From assembly GCA_011364965.1 (NCBI GenBank), contig RDOB01000005.1:147210-211209 (forward strand): a stretch of DNA of 64,000 bases, in the 5' to 3' direction. A program made the translations under genes and the position numbers. Source of the stretch: Candidatus Heimdallarchaeota archaeon (lineage in GTDB: Archaea > Asgardarchaeota > Heimdallarchaeia > Hodarchaeales > Hodarchaeaceae). The notes under the pieces were generated by a model that worked only from the letters and a program-made list of their open reading frames with translations, made no database searches and was not told where the DNA came from. Positions 6,642 through 32,114 of this stretch are shown piece by piece (within the stretch, counting starts at the first letter, position 1; every line of letters starts with the position of its first letter).

Positions 6642-8531
6642 ATGAATCTACCAACTCCAAATTTCAAAAAAATATCTCACCGAATAGTGATATTGAGTTT
6701 ACTAGTAGCTTTAGTACCTTTGACCATTCAAGCATTACTAGATGCGAATGCTCTGGAAAGTCAGCTGTATCAATCCAAAGAAAAAGAATTAGAAAACAGA
6801 TCAGTTGATTTATCTCATATCACTGACAAATACTTTTCAGAAGCTGCAGATTTAATACACTCACTGGCGGACTCCCCCCTTCTACAAGATTCAGCATTAA
6901 ATGCTTCAAATCAAGATTTGAACATACTGTGGGATGCATACGAAGGCTCGAATTACGATAATGAAGCTAATCAAAAGGCAAACAAAACAGCTATTCCCTG
7001 GGATCCCACTAATGACCTATTCCCAAACATTTCGGTCTATATAAATGAATTTGCGATTAAAAATAATTTTACCGAAATTTTTGTGGCTGATGCACAGGGA
7101 CGAGTATATGCTACAACCGAGTCAGTACCTGGTGATTTCCTACAGATAGATGAAGACTGGTGGACAGCTACTGAGAACTCAGAAACATGTGAGTTCACTG
7201 AATTCGAGTATGATGACAGCTCTGCAGCTTATGTATTGACAATAGTCCATGAAATTGAATTAGATAATACAACAACTGTTGGTATGATTAAAACCGCTTT
7301 TAACGTTAATGCTGTTACTAATGCAATTAGAGAGGTTATAGAACATTCACTACACGATACAGAGGAGCATGATCATGAACATGAAGGTACCATTGAAGGC
7401 GTAACTACCTTTACTATCGGATTGGATGGATCGATAATCATTCACATGGAAGAGAACCTGATTGGTAAAAATATAACAAATTTCATGCCTGAAAGAAGTG
7501 TGCTAAATAAACAGATTTACACTGAGCTTAAAGAAGGGCTCATTCCCGTTGGTTACGGAAAAATAGCTTATATGAACACATCTTATTATGCAAGCTATCA
7601 GAAACTCCATAATTGGGAATTCTGCATTTTTGTTATCGAAGATAGTAAAGTGATTTCTGATGCCATAGCAGGCCAGTGGATTAGAAATCTTTTGTTACAG
7701 TTGTTTTTAATAGTTATTGCTGTAGTATTTGCGGTTTTCGCTGCTAGAACCCTAGCTAATCCAATTAAGAACATTGCATTGATAACCCAAAAAGTAGCAG
7801 ACGGAGATCTCAATACTAAACTTGGTGAATCCGAATTGAAAAGAGCTGATGAGATCGGACAGCTAAGTAATTCATTTGAAAAAATGATTGACAATCTGAA
7901 TGATTTCATATATAGTTCGCAAGCAGCTGCGGAAGAAGTCTCAGCATCTGCGGAAGAATTAGCTTCTACCAGCGAAGAAGTTAATGCACTCTCTGAAGAA
8001 ATCGCTGCAACCGTACAACAAGTCACCCGAGGTGCTACAACTCAATCTGAATTGGCTATCAAAGCAATAGAAAGTTTAAACTCAATGTCTACCGTAGTGG
8101 ATACAGCTCTCAATGATATAAGTGCTACCATACAAATTATTGAAGATATTGCTACTCAGACAAATATCTTAGCACTAAACGCTGCAATAGAAGCTGCACG
8201 TGCTGGTGAATCAGGTCGGGGATTTGCAGTAGTTGCGGATAATGTTCGTCGCTTAGCGGAAGAAACAAAAAATAATTCTGCAGAAATTACTACTTTTAGT
8301 GATAGAATTATCCAAAATATCCAATCAAGTGTAAAAGGACTTGCTGACACTCTTCAGAGTTTCGCTGCTCAATCCGAAGAATTTAGCGCGTCAAGTGAGG
8401 AAGTAGCGGCATCAACTGAAGAACAAAGTTCCGCAATGCATCAATTAACAGTTGCAGCTCAATCTTTGACAAAATTAGGGGAAGATCTCTCTCTACGAGT
8501 TATGAGTTATAAAACGAAGGAAGAAAAGTAA
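6642..8531 (+). CDS. Methyl-accepting chemotaxis protein (TM-Cache-like-TM-HAMP-MA)
   Basis: [35 protein letters not shown] hairpin tip; HAMP ([10 protein letters not shown]); two TMs flanking an extracellular domain. Confidence 0.95.
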
Positions 8532-13696: not shown

Positions 13697-14380
13697 CTAC
13701 CATATTCGTGGAATTATACGATACTTTACTTTTCTCATGTATTCTTTATACCCTTTAAGTTCTTGGATTAATATTCTTTCTTCAAATAAGATTCTTGGAA
13801 TGAAGCAAATAAGAAATAATAATGCAGGTACGAGAGCAATTATAGATCCAAGCGCTATAGGTAGACTCAATACAAAAAAGACGTTACCCAAATACATTGG
13901 ATGCCGAACAAATGCATATGGACCAGTTGAAATGACGCGTTGTTGTTCTTGAATCTCCACGATTCGTGATAAAAAAGAATTTTCTTTCATTACAAGCATG
14001 TAGATAAGCAATGAGCAAACAAACGCAGCAAACCCGAGGTATTTAAATAAAGGTACAACCAAAGGAGCTATCCATTGGTACCGACACACATCAAAAGCGG
14101 TAACGATAAACATGATAATGAAGAAAAATCCCGCTAGGAAAAGGAATAATGCATCCAAACTTAAAACAGGTTTATAATGCTGTCTAGATTGAAGAGTAGT
14201 AGGATTATCCCTGAAGATAAGGAAATATAGAGCTATTCCATAGGTAAAAAGAATAATTATGATTACTCAAGCCTCAGGCCAATTAAATGTATCAACTGGG
14301 ATGAATAGTAATAAAGAGAACACAATAAAACCTACAATTATTCTACTAAACATTGTTACTAGGAAATTTAATTCAACCAT
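13697..14380 (-). pseudogene. Isoprenylcysteine carboxyl methyltransferase (ICMT/PEMT)-family gene with one in-frame TGA
   Basis: Frame from ATG 14380 reads ...DTFNWPEA*VIIII... (TGA 14269-14267), then continues into TGPYAFVRHPMY and EE..L. Confidence 0.8.
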
Positions 14381-23526: not shown

Positions 23527-24396
23527 TTAGAAATTATCATAATCAAAAAAGAGGGGTAATATGATATGAATCCTATTGGGTAGGATCCAGGAACGGAAGT
23601 TGAAGAAAGCTGACACATATACAAGATATTCATAAATAAGCTGGTACCCGGTTCTTTGTGACAGATCTTCTGAGTCATTTAGGAAAAAAGAAACTGAGAC
23701 AGAAAAGGGATTAAACATCTCCACTTCAATTTTAATAGGCTGAGAGCACCAATATAGGAGTGTTCGAAAGAAATTTGTTAGAAAATGGGAATTTCCCCAG
23801 ATAACAGGGTCATTAAGTTGTCCATGGTTCATTTCCAATTTATTAAGAATATTAATTGTTGTATGTGAACGATCACCGATATAAAAACTCGCTTCCCGAA
23901 GAATAGAAGATAAAGAAGTAAGCTGAATCTTCTGTGTTGTTCCCAATAACTGAAGCAAATCCGAGGCAACGATTGTAGCTAACTCTTGTCGTTTTAAAGC
24001 GTTAAATATCTTATCTTCAAGAGCTGAGTTCCTAAATGGAATTCTTTTTCCTAGATTCAGAATTAGACTTGATGTGCGGAGTTCATGAATACACCTTTCC
24101 ATCCAAACAGATGTTGTAAAAGCTTTATCAGGGAAGAACTGTATTATTTTATGGGAGTTCCCCTCAATGTTCGAAGAGACAAAAAGCTCTCCACTTCTAA
24201 CATCCGGTAGAGAAAAATTCTGAGTCGATGGATGTAATTTGAATAAGTTTGCTAATGTTTGGGAAAAATATTCAATCTGGTTTTTTTCAAGAGAGATGAC
24301 CAAAAAGGCGCTAAAAGGAATTTTGAACGGGTCCTCACAGTAATTTCTTCGAGTGAGTGGATTTCTCGTTATTATTTTTTCAAAACTGGGTTCCAT
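23527..24396 (-). CDS. PAS-like plus HisKA pseudo-histidine kinase
   Basis: PFSAFLVISLEKNQIEYFSQ (PAS-like); H-box IHELRT; IWGNSHFLTNFFRTLL at the N-box position without the conserved Asn; no G boxes. Confidence 0.6.
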   Translation of the reverse strand: MEPSFEKIITRNPLTRRNYCEDPFKIPFSAFLVISLEKNQIEYFSQTLANLFKLHPSTQNFSLPDVRSGELFVSSNIEGNSHKIIQFFPDKAFTTSVWMERCIHELRTSSLILNLGKRIPFRNSALEDKIFNALKRQELATIVASDLLQLLGTTQKIQLTSLSSILREASFYIGDRSHTTINILNKLEMNHGQLNDPVIWGNSHFLTNFFRTLLYWCSQPIKIEVEMFNPFSVSVSFFLNDSEDLSQRTGYQLIYEYLVYVSAFFNFRSWILPNRIHIILPLFFDYDNF

Positions 24397-24700
24397 TTTC
24401 TACACATAGCATTTTCTTAAGATGTTCCTGCAATTTCTTAAAGATATGTGGATGACTATTACATTTTATCTCAATTAAAGGATCTATCGTCCTAGAGCTT
24501 AAAAGAAAGAATTCTGATTCGATATCTAGGTTAAGGGAATTCAAAAACCATGAAAGCAGAACCCTTCTAGAATTAGAATCATCCTCATCCCTGAGCTTTA
24601 AGACCACACGATCTTCTCCAAAATAAAAATCCTTAAACAGGTAAATTGATAGGAAAAAAAGAAGAAGGGACTCTATTCTAGTATCTTTTTCACAAGTCAA
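24380..24700 (-). CDS. Hypothetical protein, possibly an eroded HATPase-like fold
   Basis: Overlaps the next gene; RVVLKLRD and LNSLNLDIES loosely match the HATPase strand pattern. Confidence 0.5.
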   Translation of the reverse strand: MTCEKDTRIESLLLFFLSIYLFKDFYFGEDRVVLKLRDEDDSNSRRVLLSWFLNSLNLDIESEFFLLSSRTIDPLIEIKCNSHPHIFKKLQEHLKKMLCVENGTQF

Positions 24701-24723
24701 GATCTTATCCTCTGATTAACTTG

Positions 24724-24870
24724 TTAAAATCCAGGTGGAGGAGGTGAATTTGGTGGTGCTGTACCTGTGATAACTTGGATACTAAAAAGAGTCGCCAGAA
24801 GCAACAAGGGAATTATTTTGATGATATAACTCTTACTAGGTTTTCTTAACATTCTCAAATGTCTTCTCAT
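24724..24870 (-). CDS. 48-aa putative secreted peptide precursor MRRHLRMLRKPSKSYIIKIIPLLLLATLFSIQVITGTAPPNSPPPPGF
   Basis: Manual translation from ATG 24870 to TAA 24724; basic n-region, hydrophobic h-region, Pro-rich tail; GGTG 9 nt upstream; 23 nt before the next gene. Confidence 0.7.
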   Translation of the reverse strand: MRRHLRMLRKPSKSYIIKIIPLLLLATLFSIQVITGTAPPNSPPPPGF

Positions 24871-24886
24871 GGGATTTTACACCAGC

Positions 24887-25004
24887 CCACCTAAGTATTC
24901 ATCATTCACTTTAATTCCAAGCAGGATCTTTTATCCCATTTTTTATAAAGAAATGAGCATTCTTGATAAATCTTATACGTTAAAATGTTATTTAATGTAG
25001 GTGG
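24887..25004. promoter_or_regulatory. Divergent promoter region with central palindromic TTTATAAA
   Basis: TTTATAAA at 24942-24949; CCACCTA (24887-24893) and TAGGTGG (24998-25004) share the same centre. Confidence 0.45.
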
Positions 25005-25018
25005 ATGGAAACTAGAAA

Positions 25019-26512
25019 ATGGAAGAGCTGGGGAAGCAAAAATATGTGAATGAGGAAATTTTATCTGTAAAATTTCCCTCCCAAGCAACCCCGATTGAGA
25101 AGGAATTTTTTTCCAGCTTAACAAGATATTACGAAAAAATAAAAATTAATTGTAAAGAATCAAAATCGGTACCTAAAATCTGCAACAATTTATATGAAAA
25201 GGATACTGTACCATTTCTCAATAGGTGGCACGAGCATTTTTCCTTTCTTCAACCGAGCCCAACCTATTCTGGTTGGCCTTACTATTCTTTCGAATTACAC
25301 CTACCAGATAAAGTAGTCCTAATACCCCATAGAGCGGTTGTTTATGAATTTATCAATCCTGATAATGTAATAAAAACCAAAATATCCAATCTTAGAAATA
25401 TTTCGGAATTTGTACAATTGTTCAACCGCTTTTATACAAATATAAGTGTCAATTTAAATTTAAATGATCTCAAAATTATCAAAGGGCTTACATCCAAACG
25501 TTTTTTACAAAGTAGTTCTCGATTTCCGACTAATGAGAAGATGGCGAAATTATGTGGATGTACCCGTCAAACGTTTACCAGAAGATTCGACGTTCTAACA
25601 ACTGGTCTCTCCGTCATTTATCTAAATTGTAGAATTGATGTTGGTAGACTCGGTTACGAAACATTTAACTCTATACTTCCTTTAAACCAATTTGAAAAAG
25701 TCAGGGAAGAGTGCGAAAAATATTGTCTAGCTGTAATACCAATTAATACATTTTCAAATATCTCACATACCGAATCATATTATCTTATTATAAGCCAAAT
25801 TCCAATTCATCGAAATGATTCTTATTCGATTCTCTCAAATGGGGCACATGGATCATTTCATCAGCGATTATCACAAGCTTATATTGGATGGAATCTCAAA
25901 ACGATCCATCCAGACTCTAATCTTCGGTGGAAAGTTCTTCCACCGATTCTTTCGACACAAACTTGGACAGACCATATAATATCCGAAAATAATGGGATTT
26001 TTTATGATTTAAACCCTCAAGAGTATAATCCATCTTTGACTTCAAGCGAAATTAAATTATTGAGCTATTTTGAAAAATATGGCTTCGTTCAAGATAAGAA
26101 ACTCGCCACCACGCTAGGATTATCATTAAAGACTATTCAGAATACATGGAGACGATTGAGCCAACGCAAACTGTTTCATCGATTTTCATTTATTTCTAAT
26201 ATTGGCTTAGACTTTAAACCGTGGATCACCATAATCGGAAAACAAGAATCACATTCCCCTCAACTCATTGAGAATATTGTAGAACATCTGAAATTCTTCC
26301 CATTCTGTTTTTTATTCTTTGAAACTGGAAACCGCGAGAATTCTCATCCAATAATAACAGGAGTGCTTCATATGCCTCCAGCATGGGTGGATGACTTCTT
26401 TTTTAAAATTTCACTACTTTCAGAATTGCAATTCGATGTAAACGTCAATTTTGCCCATAATCGGATAATAAAACAGAACATCAATCTCGAAGAAACTTAT
26501 AATAAAAAATAA
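25019..26512 (+). CDS. Large transcription regulator with two HTH/Lrp-AsnC-like modules
   Basis: HTH1 PTNEKMAKLCGCTRQTFTRRF plus DVGRLG linker; HTH2 QDKKLATTLGLSLKTIQNTWRRL plus NIGL. Confidence 0.7.
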   Translation: MEELGKQKYVNEEILSVKFPSQATPIEKEFFSSLTRYYEKIKINCKESKSVPKICNNLYEKDTVPFLNRWHEHFSFLQPSPTYSGWPYYSFELHLPDKVVLIPHRAVVYEFINPDNVIKTKISNLRNISEFVQLFNRFYTNISVNLNLNDLKIIKGLTSKRFLQSSSRFPTNEKMAKLCGCTRQTFTRRFDVLTTGLSVIYLNCRIDVGRLGYETFNSILPLNQFEKVREECEKYCLAVIPINTFSNISHTESYYLIISQIPIHRNDSYSILSNGAHGSFHQRLSQAYIGWNLKTIHPDSNLRWKVLPPILSTQTWTDHIISENNGIFYDLNPQEYNPSLTSSEIKLLSYFEKYGFVQDKKLATTLGLSLKTIQNTWRRLSQRKLFHRFSFISNIGLDFKPWITIIGKQESHSPQLIENIVEHLKFFPFCFLFFETGNRENSHPIITGVLHMPPAWVDDFFFKISLLSELQFDVNVNFAHNRIIKQNINLEETYNKK

Positions 26513-26524
26513 CGGAAAAAAGAA

Positions 26525-27613
26525 TCATTCAGTCTTAAAAAAGGTTGAAATCTTCGCTAATCCTTCACTAACTTGAGATAATTCTTGAGCATTCCTAGAT
26601 ATTTGTGTAATGGAAGCGGTTTGTTCTTCTGTTGATGCAACAACTTCTTCGGTAGATGCAGAGTACTCCTCAGATTGAGTAGCAAAATTTTGGAACGTTT
26701 CACTTACCATTCCTATTGTGGAACTCAAGTGCGCAAGTAAATTTGTAAATTTCATCTGTGTTTCTTGGGAGTTATGTTTTGATTCTTCAGCTAATCTCCG
26801 AACATTATCTGCCACTACAGAGAATCCTTTTCCATGCTCACCAGCTCGTGCAGCTTCAATGGAAGTATTCAATGCAAGGATATTGGTATTATGAGCAATA
26901 TCTTCAATGATTTGAAGAGAAGATTCAATCTCCTTTCTTGCCAAATTAAATACTTTGAGCAGATTCTCGATATCCTTGATCCCCGCTATGGCTGATTCTG
27001 ACTGTATATTCGCTCCTTCACTAATATTTTGTATAGTTGCTGTAACTTCTTCTGATATGGCAGTAAGTTCCTCGGAAGTTGTAGCTAGATCGTCAGCCAA
27101 CGTATTTGCTAATTGGGCTGATTTCTTAATTATTCCAATATTTGATTTCAGATTTTCGGTCATTATATGAAAAGATGAGGCCAATTCACCAAGTTCATCT
27201 TTCCGTTGCTGAAGGTCATTACTAATTTTAATTGTTAAATTTCCTTTAGCAATGGATTCTGTGGCTATAAAAGTAACAGATTTAAGGGGAATGACCAAAC
27301 TGCGGTATAAATAAGAAGCGATAGTAGCAATGATGATAAAAGTAATCAGTAAAAGTAAACACATCATCACAATATAAAGAAAAGAGGAATCCCCCCAGAT
27401 AGATTTGGCACGGACAAGAATCCCTGTAGCTAACCCCGTATAAACAACCAAGGTTGTCATAGTTATCACAAGCTGTAATACTATCGAATTTCGGGCTTTC
27501 CAAACCCCGACGCCGATAACAAGCCCTCCACTAATCAACATAATACTAACATCGAAAAACATTTCTTGAGCAATTTGTAACAGTCCATTTGAAAGCGATT
27601 GAACGTAAAACAT
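26525..27613 (-). CDS. Methyl-accepting chemotaxis protein with 3-TM membrane sensor, HAMP and short MA domain
   Basis: [35 protein letters not shown]; [14 protein letters not shown]; no extracellular domain. Confidence 0.92.
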
Positions 27614-27625
27614 CTTTGAAACACC

Positions 27626-29407
27626 TTAATTTTGTAACTTTAAATTTTCTAGCAATTCTATTCCTTTAGGTTCATGACTGAATAAAAAACAGGCCATTGA
27701 AAGATAGATGAATATCGGACCATGAGCTAAATCATTGTAACGAATAGGTCGAGGTCCAGTTCCTTCAGGAAAACTTTTCATTTGACCTTTAGTTAAGTAC
27801 TGGAGCCATAAAAGACTTTTTTCAAATAATGGATTTGAAGGATCTAATAAAGCCCAGATAATTGCTGCATAGCAAGTAGATTGTTGTTCACTTTTAGAGG
27901 AAATGTGTAATTTTGGCGAATAACCTCCATCAGTGTTAACGCTAGTCATTAAGCAATCTAATATTCTGGTTTTGAGTATAGTAGTTTGAGCTTCAAAGGA
28001 TGTTCCTTTTGTGAAAGGTGATACTTGAACAAGGTAGATTGCTATCGCAATTTGTGAGAGAGGGTAAATGTCACTAAAGGAATAAGCACAATATTTAAAG
28101 CTCCCATCCTCCTCTTGTGACTCTAGAAGATTAAGAAAAGCAGAGTTAATCATTTTAATCCTCATTTCTTCATTTATGAGAGTAGGAGGTAAAAGAGCAT
28201 ATAACATTACTAATCGGGCGGTCATCTCGGCAAGAGTTTCCGTAGAATGAAGATACATCGAAGATCCACCATCATCCCTACTGGTACGTCTAATAAATTT
28301 AAGTCCTCGATTTATCGCTTTCATTATCTCCTCTTTAGTATGATAATATGGTAGAAGCGTCAACATAACAAATATTGTAGTATCTACGTCACTTAATAGC
28401 ATCTGGGGTTGTAGTGGCCAACCTCCATCCTCATTCTGGGAAGTTAGGAGAGAGATTATTGTAGAAAAAGGAGGTTGATTTCCCTCGAAAAGCCATTTAA
28501 AAAAGAAGAAAAGGGAGGAGTTATATAATTTCATTGAATTGAGAACTGATAATCCCCCTTCTTTTCTACTAAGGTATACTTCGGATTTATGAATCCCATG
28601 CTGTATTAAATCAGGATATTTTGTAGAGAGAGCAAAATATTTTACAGTATGTAGAACCAAGAGAGTAAGAAATTGATTTTTTTGCCAAGTACCATCATTA
28701 GATTGTAATTCAAAGAGATCCCGTAAGTAATTAGACTGGATCAAAGAAGAATCATTATTTTGCTTTCCTACTATAAGCAGAAAGAGATAATAGTATACTC
28801 TCCTCCAGACATCAATTTCTTCAAGATTGACTCCAGATACGTTTAATTTTGCTGAAATAGACGTTAAAAAGGAATAAATTCTTTCTTTAACCTGATCATC
28901 TGGACTAGTATATAAAGCGAGTAAGTTGAAAGATAGAATTTTACGAAAATATCGCTTTAAATCACCCTCTTCTGCATCTGTTTTAAATAAATCCGCTAAA
29001 ATTGAATTATATTCACTAATCCAGGCATCAACTTTTCTACTTAGGGAATCGCTAGTAAAATTCTCTGAACAAATATAATAGAGATTAAATAAAGAATTTT
29101 GCAGATGTTGATCAAGGAAAGAAAGGATTGAAGGATTATTAGTTTGTCTAGCAATTTGAATTAAGGTTTCCTCGGAAATGGTTGCTTTTTCGGGAGTATA
29201 AAGAGTGAAATATGATGCTAGTAAGAGGGACTCAAGCAAACGTGCTTCATATCCAAATTCGACAAAACTACTACTTTTTTCAATATGTGAATGGATTAGC
29301 TGACTAGCGCGATCTAATATCTGTTTGAAAAGCTGTATGAATGGTTGATCAAATAACTCCTCAGGCTTCGGTCTTTTATCAGGTTGGTCTGAGATTTGGA
29401 ACTCCAA
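27626..29407 (-). CDS. Class II terpene cyclase-like (prenyltransferase/squalene-oxidase repeat) protein
   Basis: QW-type repeats LQSNDGTW, SQNEDGGW, SRDDGG, SQEEDGSF, SVNTDGGY; general-acid motif DVDTT (28390-28376); RLLESLLL and GPRPIRY segments. Confidence 0.75.
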   Translation of the reverse strand: MEFQISDQPDKRPKPEELFDQPFIQLFKQILDRASQLIHSHIEKSSSFVEFGYEARLLESLLLASYFTLYTPEKATISEETLIQIARQTNNPSILSFLDQHLQNSLFNLYYICSENFTSDSLSRKVDAWISEYNSILADLFKTDAEEGDLKRYFRKILSFNLLALYTSPDDQVKERIYSFLTSISAKLNVSGVNLEEIDVWRRVYYYLFLLIVGKQNNDSSLIQSNYLRDLFELQSNDGTWQKNQFLTLLVLHTVKYFALSTKYPDLIQHGIHKSEVYLSRKEGGLSVLNSMKLYNSSLFFFFKWLFEGNQPPFSTIISLLTSQNEDGGWPLQPQMLLSDVDTTIFVMLTLLPYYHTKEEIMKAINRGLKFIRRTSRDDGGSSMYLHSTETLAEMTARLVMLYALLPPTLINEEMRIKMINSAFLNLLESQEEDGSFKYCAYSFSDIYPLSQIAIAIYLVQVSPFTKGTSFEAQTTILKTRILDCLMTSVNTDGGYSPKLHISSKSEQQSTCYAAIIWALLDPSNPLFEKSLLWLQYLTKGQMKSFPEGTGPRPIRYNDLAHGPIFIYLSMACFLFSHEPKGIELLENLKLQN

Positions 29408-30537: not shown

Positions 30538-31095
30538 ATGAATTGGATAACAAAAATAGAGCTCGGGATTCTAAATGGCTGGATTTACTTTTCTATTTAT
30601 ATGATTATTTTTCTCCTAACTCTACGAACTTGTACTCCAGAAGTCCGAAAACGGTTGTATAATCGATCCTTTTGAACAAAAAAAACCAAAATTATCACTT
30701 GCATTGGAAAAGTGTTTTCTTTTTTAAATATTATCATGGTCATATTTGGTGTGTTGGTAGTTGGAACTCTAGAACTCATTTTAGGAACTATTCTCTGTAT
30801 AGCTGGTTTAAGCTTGCTGGTTGTTGGACTTATACACTATCGGGACGCTTCATTAGACCAATCTGTCACCACAGGAATATACCAGTATTCTAGAAATCCA
30901 CAGGTAATTGGTATATACCTTCTATTCTTAAGCATGATTTTAACAATCGGATCGGGGATCAATCTGATATTTTGGAGCATATCAACCGTCTGTGCCCACT
31001 TCAGTATTTTAGGCGAAGAATATTCACTAGAACAACAATATGGCGAATCATACCTAGATTTCAAACGAAAAATACTCCATTATTTCTTTATTTAA
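30538..31095 (+). pseudogene. ICMT/PEMT-family methyltransferase with one in-frame TGA
   Basis: Frame from ATG 30538 reads ...RKRLYNRSF*TKKTK... (TGA 30673-30675), then TTGIYQYSRNP and EE..L...YG. Confidence 0.78.
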
Positions 31096-31283: not shown

Positions 31284-32114
31284 ATGAGTACTACTAATAA
31301 TAGACCTGGGATAACTATCTTGAGAGAATATATGCCAGAGATCACGAATGTAAAAACTCTATCTTTAATTGGGATTTCAACTGGAATAGCGTTGCTAATC
31401 GCTCATTTTTTAAATACGATAGATTGGTGGGTCCCATTACTCGTAGCCATTATTGCCAATCTAGCAAGCTTTTGGACTATGGCTCGAATTTCTCTGAATG
31501 CGGAGAAAATTCGAATAACTTATCGTAAAAAATATACTACACGGGCATATGCAAAATTTTTCTATCATTATGTAATTCCAGTTATTCCCCCGAATATGCT
31601 GGTTATCTTTCAGATTATTATGGTCGAAAATAACACATTTTTCAAGATGATTTACCCCTCATATGCCTCTAACATTCTTTATCAAGCAATAATACCATGG
31701 CAGCTCGCTGTACCATTAGGCATTTTTTTAATTGGATTATATGCCCTTATGAGTCGAGATCCTGTCAATGGGGGTTTTGCTATAGACACTGAGCTCTTTC
31801 TTTATATAATCTATCCAGAAAAGGCTAGAAAATTACAGAGAGGAGTATATGAGTATATCCGCCATCCACACTATGCTGAGGGAGTGTATATGTGTTTTGG
31901 ATTCGCACTGCTTTCTCAGAACATCATAGCACTTATTTTCGCTTCCCTATTTCTAATAAGCTATTATGGGATAGCTAGAGTAGAGGATCAAGAACTAATA
32001 AGGAGATATGGTGCATCGTTTGAGAAGTATGTTAAAACTCATCCATGTTTTATACCCAAGAGAAAGGATTTGCAGTCATTTATAAAGCTCATTTTTTTAG
32101 GGGAAATAGAATGA
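31284..32114 (+). CDS. ICMT/PEMT-family membrane methyltransferase
   Basis: GVYEYIRHPHY; EDQELIRRYG...P.FIP. Confidence 0.8.
   Translation: MSTTNNRPGITILREYMPEITNVKTLSLIGISTGIALLIAHFLNTIDWWVPLLVAIIANLASFWTMARISLNAEKIRITYRKKYTTRAYAKFFYHYVIPVIPPNMLVIFQIIMVENNTFFKMIYPSYASNILYQAIIPWQLAVPLGIFLIGLYALMSRDPVNGGFAIDTELFLYIIYPEKARKLQRGVYEYIRHPHYAEGVYMCFGFALLSQNIIALIFASLFLISYYGIARVEDQELIRRYGASFEKYVKTHPCFIPKRKDLQSFIKLIFLGEIE

Follow-up and report, generated by a model that had tools for sequence, protein, structure and literature searches.

The stretch of DNA analysed here, referred to as the window, comprises 64,000 nt of contig RDOB01000005.1 from an 87% complete genome assembly (G000; among relatives, G denotes genomes, L loci and P proteins). 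On the reverse strand it carries a gene for a class II terpene cyclase, followed by a gene for a chemoreceptor of the methyl-accepting chemotaxis protein (MCP) type, and the pair was annotated as follows:

27626..29407, reverse strand: two-domain class II terpene cyclase of 593 aa, TTG start (phmmer, AlphaFold2, Foldseek, profile–profile comparison, tree)
27614..27625, reverse strand: intergenic gap of 12 nt between cyclase and MCP (open reading frame positions)
27622-27626, reverse strand: Shine–Dalgarno-like AGGTG, overlapping the cyclase stop codon
26525..27613, reverse strand: chemoreceptor (MCP), 362 aa, with three transmembrane segments, HAMP and signalling domain (Pfam PF00672 and PF00015 over cut-off; hydropathy)

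Both open reading frames (ORFs) are intact and lie as given in the original prediction, made from the letters of this stretch, with the 593-aa frame ending 12 nt before the MCP start. Four runs, from four studies, yielded contigs that span the junction, which excludes a mis-assembly, and no indel was found inside either ORF in the contigs of four other studies. Metagenomes of sediment and mangrove from several studies also contain this DNA. The AGGTG motif, formerly placed in the gap, is present, but its first A still belongs to the cyclase stop codon, as the final base. The supposed Asgard host was confirmed by a true actin in G000 (443 bits), and relatives of the cyclase carry the labels Odinarchaeota and Promethearchaeota. 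Judged by the structure of the class, the host would belong to Heimdallarchaeia, probably to Hodarchaeales.

In a sequence search of the Protein Data Bank (PDB), the cyclase matched SsDMS, the drimenyl-diphosphate synthase (DMS) of Streptomyces showdoensis (phmmer, E 2e-7). An AlphaFold2 model (pLDDT 94, pTM 0.94) was compared by Foldseek, with SsDMS 7XQZ as best match (E 9.6e-19, TMt 0.79) and squalene–hopene cyclase next (PDB 1SQC/3SQC, E 3.8e-11); the top 17 matches were all class II cyclases, and the fold of two alpha–alpha barrels (beta–gamma) was found. Profile–profile alignment to bacterial homologs by hhalign covered the full length (Prob 100, E 1.8e-67), and profile A3 scored SsDMS at 544 bits versus 151 for squalene–hopene cyclase. 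Pfam and NCBIfam models gave prenyltransferase/squalene-cyclase matches below threshold only (Pfam 15-16 vs 26 bits; TIGR01787 18.9 vs 322.7). Membership in the squalene–hopene/oxidosqualene cyclase family was thus ruled out, the protein lying far under the family hidden Markov model (HMM) cut-offs; with squalene–hopene cyclase it shares the class II fold and QW-type repeats, and unlike that enzyme it carries diphosphate-binding residues. Three of the five repeats originally counted fit the Q..DG.W/F pattern (residues 226-241, 315-330 and 422-437), whereas two are degenerate (about 368-382 and 482-496). The residues considered characteristic are located at:

28376..28390, reverse strand: DVDTT acid motif, D340-T344 (aligned to DVDD of SsDMS, with D342 on D303)
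28940..28945, reverse strand: R155-K156, corresponding to SsDMS R132/K133, predicted diphosphate binding (invariant in 9/9 full-length family members; hhalign to bacterial RK)
27746..27757, reverse strand: GPRP motif with R553, corresponding to SsDMS R501, predicted diphosphate binding (R in 11/12 members)

D303 is the general acid position of SsDMS, mutated in the D303E/D303A structures, and D340 and D342 are kept in 11/11 family members covering the site. DVDTT therefore stands at the class II acid position, as had been claimed, and a threonine standing where the final Asp would be is consistent with cyclase activity, because DxDT works as acid motif in MtHPS (PMC9585517). In SsDMS, the diphosphate is held by R132, K133 and R501 (PMC12232559). 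For the RK motif the hhalign alignment was used, since the MAFFT alignment A3 misplaces it between the Asgard and bacterial groups. Y557 corresponds to SsDMS Y505, and both the RLLES and the GPRP..Y segment align to SsDMS, bearing out the resemblance to drimenyl-diphosphate synthase that had been noted. The class II identity thus holds by fold and acid Asp, and is DMS-like rather than squalene–hopene-like. From SsDMS (PDB 7XQ4, 7XR7; DMS-2, PMC12324236), with which it shares the two-domain fold, the window cyclase differs by an identity of 17%, DxDT instead of DxDD, a length greater by about 60-80 aa, its archaeal origin and the adjoining MCP. Where SsDMS has the Mg ligand E169, the window cyclase has Y205, and the fourth position of its acid motif is T343, both positions varying among the bacterial homologs too; F248 is replaced by V288, so that chain length and product cannot be assumed to be those of SsDMS (farnesyl diphosphate (FPP) to drimenyl diphosphate).

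Judged by these residues, the substrate is most likely a prenyl diphosphate, and the enzyme is very probably active on such a substrate, which two polyprenyl synthases in G000 could supply. No transmembrane segment was found in the cyclase by hydropathy, and its diphosphate-binding residues are kept; the direct product should therefore be a charged cyclic prenyl diphosphate needing a second step, and the earlier proposal of a terpenoid made in the membrane is not supported.

A profile search of 1.84 billion representatives returned ten proteins at 228-1048 bits, followed by a drop to 82 bits (bacterial DMS-like). Together with two copies from G022, these form a family of 12 sequences, mostly 26-47% identical and up to 65% within one subclade. 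In a tree calculated without squalene–hopene cyclase, MstE and SsDMS itself, the Asgard family was monophyletic (ultrafast bootstrap (UFB) 92) and sister to bacterial homologs; by sequence, the window cyclase is a sister lineage of the DMS-2 clade, which has been described as bacterial (PMC12324236, McShea et al.). The closest homolog, P0002 (47% identity), was the sole match in word-index searches, and scanning contigs of genomes and metagenomes by pattern turned up no locus that was not already known; the family was found by the full HMM search. A match in G023 (828 aa, secreted repeat protein) was unrelated to the family. The gene is rare and patchy, being present in 2/400 genomes of the phylum and in 0/21 genomes of the same genus (incomplete assemblies).

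The likeness to the mycobacterial Rv3377c drawn from DxDTT holds for the motif, but not for kinship. Three Asgard cyclases, assigned as Rv3377c-type by a YDTA-type N-terminus and an adjacent transferase, formed a separate branch of length 3.7 and gave no significant BLAST match to the window family, and Rv3377c itself (6VPT) ranked 15th by fold (TMq 0.47). Membership in the Rv3377c-like/Asgard halimadienyl clade was ruled out by BLAST, branch length and fold rank. Shared with the M. tuberculosis Rv3377c/Rv3378c system are the DxDT motif and, in four relatives of the window cyclase, an Rv3378c-like partner gene, and with the Asgard halimadienyl cyclases published by McShea et al. (10.1101/2025.02.07.637177) the Asgard host; the cyclase clade is another, the mycobacterial locus has no receptor, and no Rv3378c-like gene was found in G000. 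The family is hence a second, unreported Asgard cyclase lineage apart from the published Rv3377c-like clade. In that preprint and its supplements, drimenyl synthases, chemotaxis and the contig prefix of G022 are not mentioned, and the biological role of Asgard terpene cyclases is stated to be unknown.

The adjacency of cyclase and MCP, for which a synteny survey had been suggested, was conserved. At 7/8 fully informative other loci the cyclase has an MCP no more than two genes away and on its own strand, downstream in L006 (a cyclase locus of G022), L037, L039, L040, L041 and L044, and upstream at a distance of 525 nt in L042; at L001, none was found in 4.1 kb upstream, nor downstream before a convergent gene. 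The contigs of L046, L047 and L005 were too short for full judgement, and the ratio is 7/10 if L047 and L005 are counted as negatives. The gene order is cyclase, Rv3378c-like gene and MCP with six transmembrane segments in G022, where cyclase and Rv3378c-like gene lie on contig JAJRXH010000470.1, with the middle gene truncated in L037; cyclase, Rv3378c-like gene and three-segment MCP in L044; cyclase, three-segment MCP and DDxxD protein in L039 and L040; and cyclase fused to the DDxxD protein, three-segment MCP and receiver in L041. Spacing between cassette genes is 1-38 nt. At a generous chance of 5% per locus, a linkage of 6/9 gives p about 1e-6, a value to be read as conservation and not as independent origins, the loci not being fully independent (L006 and L037, for example, are near relatives at 61%). 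The adjacency far exceeds what chance would give, for G000 carries about four MCP loci (MCP matches per class genome: 0 to about 24 or more) and divergent relatives show the link again. As reverse control, about 40 other MCP loci were inspected (flanks mostly 1.5 kb), which gave 0 cyclases of the window family and one Rv3378c-like gene. That the gene pair is a real feature and a conserved Asgard cassette is highly probable. No description of a terpene cyclase–chemoreceptor pairing was found in the literature (subscription papers not covered); the archaeal DMS-type lineage and its pairing are absent from the literature searched, while the parts themselves are of known kinds. Two of the three outcomes by which the original prediction could have been overturned, misalignment of DVDTT and loss of adjacency in relatives, thus did not occur, and several of its points were corrected.

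At seven loci a third enzyme is present, which had been overlooked: either an Rv3378c-like transferase or a protein of class I isoprenoid-synthase fold. The former was found in L006, L037, L044 and L046 (G022 protein against PDB 3WQK, E 4e-10, DGTR motif), Rv3378c being the tuberculosinyl transferase of M. tuberculosis (PMC11476799). The latter is encoded separately in L039 and L040 and fused to the cyclase in L041. Its fold matched a prenyltransferase alpha domain (Z 13.8, rmsd 4.7), and no Foldseek match had an E below 0.001; as the model is moderate (pLDDT 73) and atlas support weak, only the fold is claimed for this partner. Both types of third gene take up one slot, with a distribution that agrees with the cyclase tree, and the use of two unrelated diphosphate-handling folds there points to conversion of the cyclic diphosphate to a released product. 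Alternatively, the alpha protein may supply the substrate, as in PvCPS. The three relatives in which a DDxxD alpha-fold protein is paired with or fused to the cyclase resemble bacterial systems in which class II and class I diterpene synthases are likewise paired or fused (BjKS, Sat1646, PvCPS alpha–beta–gamma); unlike those systems, the Asgard loci have an MCP after or before, and their alpha protein has KDL as second motif and no RR(G) after DDxxD. RR(G) at this position is expected in chain-elongating synthases.

Several further observations concern these enzymes. The L041 protein (P0006, L041:8001-10613) is a natural fusion of 870 aa, consisting of a class II cyclase and a C-terminal class I-fold domain, and possibly a bifunctional archaeal terpene synthase. 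In L037 (L037:9832-10431), the Rv3378c-like gene keeps only the part matching G022 residues 229-327, with cyclase and MCP intact. Rv3378c-like genes occur in 7/83 genomes of the class (L030-L036, L050-L055), at L053, L054 and L055 without adjoining cyclase and at L050 as a tandem pair, of which one copy has an N-terminal domain fused to it. An ABC/MFS transporter operon of G091 encodes a protein distantly related to the class I-fold partner (L091:9260-10135, E 4e-11), with no cyclase in the 19 kb read, and a geranylgeranyl-reductase-like flavoprotein adjoins three family cyclases (L039:5190-6539, L043:2641-2783, L047:824-2152).

The window MCP matched HAMP and MCPsignal (98.6 and 29.4 bits, both over Pfam cut-off), and hydropathy gave hydrophobic segments at residues 19-37, 44-62 and 81-99 joined by short loops, in agreement with the predicted three-segment input lacking an extracellular ligand domain:

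27317..27559, reverse strand: three-helix membrane input domain, MCP residues 19-99 (common to receptors of the same cyclase clade; shuffle z-scores)

When the input domain was compared with other MCPs against shuffled sequences, z was 8.2 for L039, 7.3 for L041 and 6.0 for L040, whereas none of 25 other short MCPs exceeded 2.4. In a leave-one-out analysis the similarity ranked 2 of 24, with the unlinked L061 outranking the held-out member every time, and averaged over all six receptors the linked–linked similarity was not clearly above that of unlinked–unlinked pairs, the signal being confined to one clade. The signalling domain grouped with MCPs of the host's own genus (UFB 100); its identity is 45-51% to unlinked MCPs of that genus and 33-37% to those linked in L039-L041. 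In this small sample of sequences, an input kept together with the enzyme and an output fitted to the host pathway make up the pattern that a cognate sensor would show. The receptors of G022 and L037, with six segments, belong to a family expanded in that lineage; two receptor types thus occupy the cassette slot, which implies that the link either formed anew or persisted while partners were exchanged. The score for a predicted complex of cyclase and MCP N-terminal dimer was 0.00, and it was not used as evidence.

Beyond the pair, G000, an assembly with no che cluster, encodes two additional MCPs of full length, an MCP fragment interrupted by a stop and, next to a kinase-like gene, a weak CheW-like gene (window 6642-8531; C13:250227-251969; C15:126287-126451; C9:324500-326458). 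Hpt was found in 12/21 relatives of the genus, and che clusters in G001, G010 and G022. Pfam searches for archaellin and CheF were empty in all relatives tried and are thus uninformative on motility. Divergent MCP-like proteins of about 520 aa with five to six transmembrane segments form a lineage-specific expansion (G022 C257, C580, C393, C717; G023 C596, C809; L037:4892-6463). At L052:7545-11431 (G085), a cyclase of the published Rv3377c-like type and an Rv3378c-like gene are adjoined by a divergent MCP with four transmembrane segments, and the other Rv3377c-type loci, L050 and L051, have unassigned membrane proteins upstream.

Taken together, the two genes are read as the core of a conserved Asgard cassette for making and sensing a cyclic terpenoid (probability about 0.5), sensing of the cassette's own product by the receptor being, at the same value, the explanation best suited to the sequences. 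In the mechanism proposed, the cyclase would bind FPP or geranylgeranyl diphosphate (GGPP) via R155/K156/R553, and D342 would protonate the terminal alkene to give a mono- or bicyclic prenyl diphosphate. The partner found in relatives would then remove or replace the diphosphate, giving a terpenyl nucleoside or alcohol with an Rv3378c-like transferase, and an olefin, alcohol or adduct with a class I-fold protein; in G000, where no finishing partner was found, this step would have to fall to a general phosphatase or to a gene missing from the assembly. The lipophilic product would partition into the membrane and be read by the transmembrane input of the co-encoded MCP, from which, according to established MCP biology, the signal would pass through HAMP and the signalling domain to the CheW/CheA pathway of the host, with an output that need not be swimming. 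A narrower version, a dedicated Asgard lipid-signal system in which the terpenoid is recognised inside the membrane by its cognate, clade-specific transmembrane domain and serves to detect kin or partners, is held only tentatively, as is its corollary that the signal would be a terpenyl nucleoside in some lineages and a terpene or terpenol in others.

As in LuxI/LuxR and ComQXPA, a small-molecule synthase is kept beside a cognate-looking receptor, and co-variation of the input with the synthase was found for the clade of the window, L039, L040 and L041, and not seen for L042 and L044. ComQXPA uses an isoprenoid and a multi-transmembrane sensor. Unlike these systems, the cassette is archaeal, its putative signal is a cyclic terpenoid and its receptor an MCP feeding the Che pathway.

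Several findings weigh against the make-and-sense cassette. Neither an Rv3378c-like nor a class I partner was found in G000 by BLAST and HMM searches (87% complete), even though the clade using the alpha protein is the sister group of the window cyclase; CheA Hpt, CheR, CheB and CheW over cut-off were likewise not found in this assembly. The closest homolog, P0002, has no adjoining MCP or finishing enzyme, and the receptor inputs of L044 and L042 lack the shared transmembrane signature. Short MCPs (350-430 aa, three to four transmembrane segments, no soluble ligand domain) are common across the class and mostly unlinked, so that this architecture is no pointer to a lipid ligand. The split ancestry of the receptor would also fit operon co-inheritance with gene conversion of signalling domains, and plain inheritance of the operon as a unit would by itself keep the inputs similar. 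Finally, with E169 and F248 of SsDMS replaced by Y205 and V288, substrate and metal use may differ.

The abundance of such MCPs also favours the rival that survives best, which is nevertheless judged rather improbable: that the two genes are co-regulated and not linked by a ligand, the cyclase making a terpenoid for defence, membrane or symbiosis and the MCP, under the same promoter, sensing the membrane state or a neighbour's molecule, possibly with control by a regulator–peptide module. Three genes of such a module, associated with the cassette and not part of its core, lie beside the pair:

25019..26512, forward strand: regulator, 497 aa, with two helix-turn-helix (HTH)-like regions, convergent with the MCP (weak HTH matches; atlas HTH_24/AsnC-type archaeal clusters)
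24724..24870, reverse strand: 48-aa ORF, divergent from the regulator, with signal-peptide-like stretch and proline-rich tail (comparable ORFs in the corresponding place in L040 and at two further loci of G000)
24380..24700, reverse strand: 106-aa ORF after the peptide (homolog in L040 directly upstream of the cyclase, 32% identity, E 6e-5; no Pfam match)

Homologs of the regulator were found in L040 (29% identity, E 1.6e-53) and in L041 and L044 (hhalign Prob 97), and the trio of regulator, peptide and 100-aa gene stands beside the cassette at 4/8 cyclase–MCP loci: the window, L040, L041 and L044. The peptide gene and the 100-aa gene immediately precede that of the cyclase in L040 and L041. 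As the trio is present twice more in G000 without terpene genes, it is considered a module of its own, frequently found with the cassette, which it may control. Co-occurrence of terpene genes and receptors may also be general, the cyclase and transferase of the other clade in G085 likewise standing beside a divergent MCP. Co-regulation alone, however, predicts neither an input domain tracking the cyclase clade with a host-like output, nor two receptor types in one slot.

Considerably less probable is that the cassette works elsewhere and the G000 copy is a reduced or orphaned remnant, having lost its finishing enzyme and Che pathway. The missing third gene and Che core, the MCP fragment with internal stop, a genome of 3.0 Mb versus 4-5 Mb for many relatives, and the sister cyclase P0002 without both partners are in line with this, whereas the two intact ORFs with all key residues and no indel in other studies' contigs, the incompleteness of the assembly and the two other full-length MCPs and weak CheW-like gene of G000 are not. 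It is unlikely, too, that a cyclic prenyl group is put on the small secreted product of the peptide gene upstream and that this lipopeptide pheromone is what the MCP detects, as in ComQXP- or ChrPC-like systems. Peptide, 100-aa, cyclase, MCP and class I-fold genes do lie on one strand in L040 and L041, trans-IDS-like peptide prenyltransferases have a class I fold too (PMC13290415), and Trp stands at or next to the C-terminus of the L040 and L044 peptides. However, the characterised trans-IDS-like transferases all need Trp (PMC13290415), which is lacking in the tails of the window peptide, the L041 peptide and two other G000 peptides; the window has no transferase, only L040 combines a Trp-bearing peptide with one, an Rv3378c-like enzyme is used instead at four loci, and two trios of G000 have no terpene gene at all. 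Least probable is an enzyme acting as sensor by docking on the receptor and reporting substrate or catalytic state, like enzyme-plus-transducer pairs: tight spacing (1-38 nt) and a receptor without soluble ligand domain would suit it, but the partner swaps between unrelated three- and six-segment types, the cyclase has no transmembrane segment, and a product-finishing third enzyme, usually present, points to a released product.

Among the neighbouring genes, PEMT/ICMT-like and archaemetzincin genes were rejected as parts of the cassette, not being conserved at other cyclase loci. Three PEMT/ICMT-type membrane proteins are encoded in the window at 13697-14158, 30712-31095 and 31284-32114, the last two with Pfam support and the first by resemblance. 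The trios, which look like a peptide-pheromone/regulator module, are located at window 23527-26512, G000 C11:565658-567851 and C15:104227-107286, L040:5582-7794, L041:5771-7937 and L044:6499-8810; each comprises a double-HTH regulator of about 500 aa, divergent from a signal-peptide-like ORF of 48-80 aa (often with a proline-run end) and an ORF of 100-126 aa, with a 289/242-aa gene next in two G000 copies. In L037, genes for ubiquitin, E1, E2 and JAB are clustered a few kb downstream of the cassette (L037:14771-17800).

Asgard archaea are the closest prokaryotic relatives of eukaryotes, and their communication, with each other and with partners, is so far unexplained. The cassette offers a candidate receptor for a cyclase product and makes the role of the cyclase testable in E. 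coli without culturing of the host. If the reading as a dedicated lipid-signal system is true, this would be, to our knowledge, the first defined signal–receptor pair in Asgard archaea and the first chemoreceptor dedicated to a self-made cyclic terpenoid. The cassette might, moreover, provide a first ligand for the transmembrane-only MCPs of the class, a large group so far without explanation, and the exchangeable finishing enzymes, Rv3378c-like or of class I fold, predict new terpenoid chemistry.

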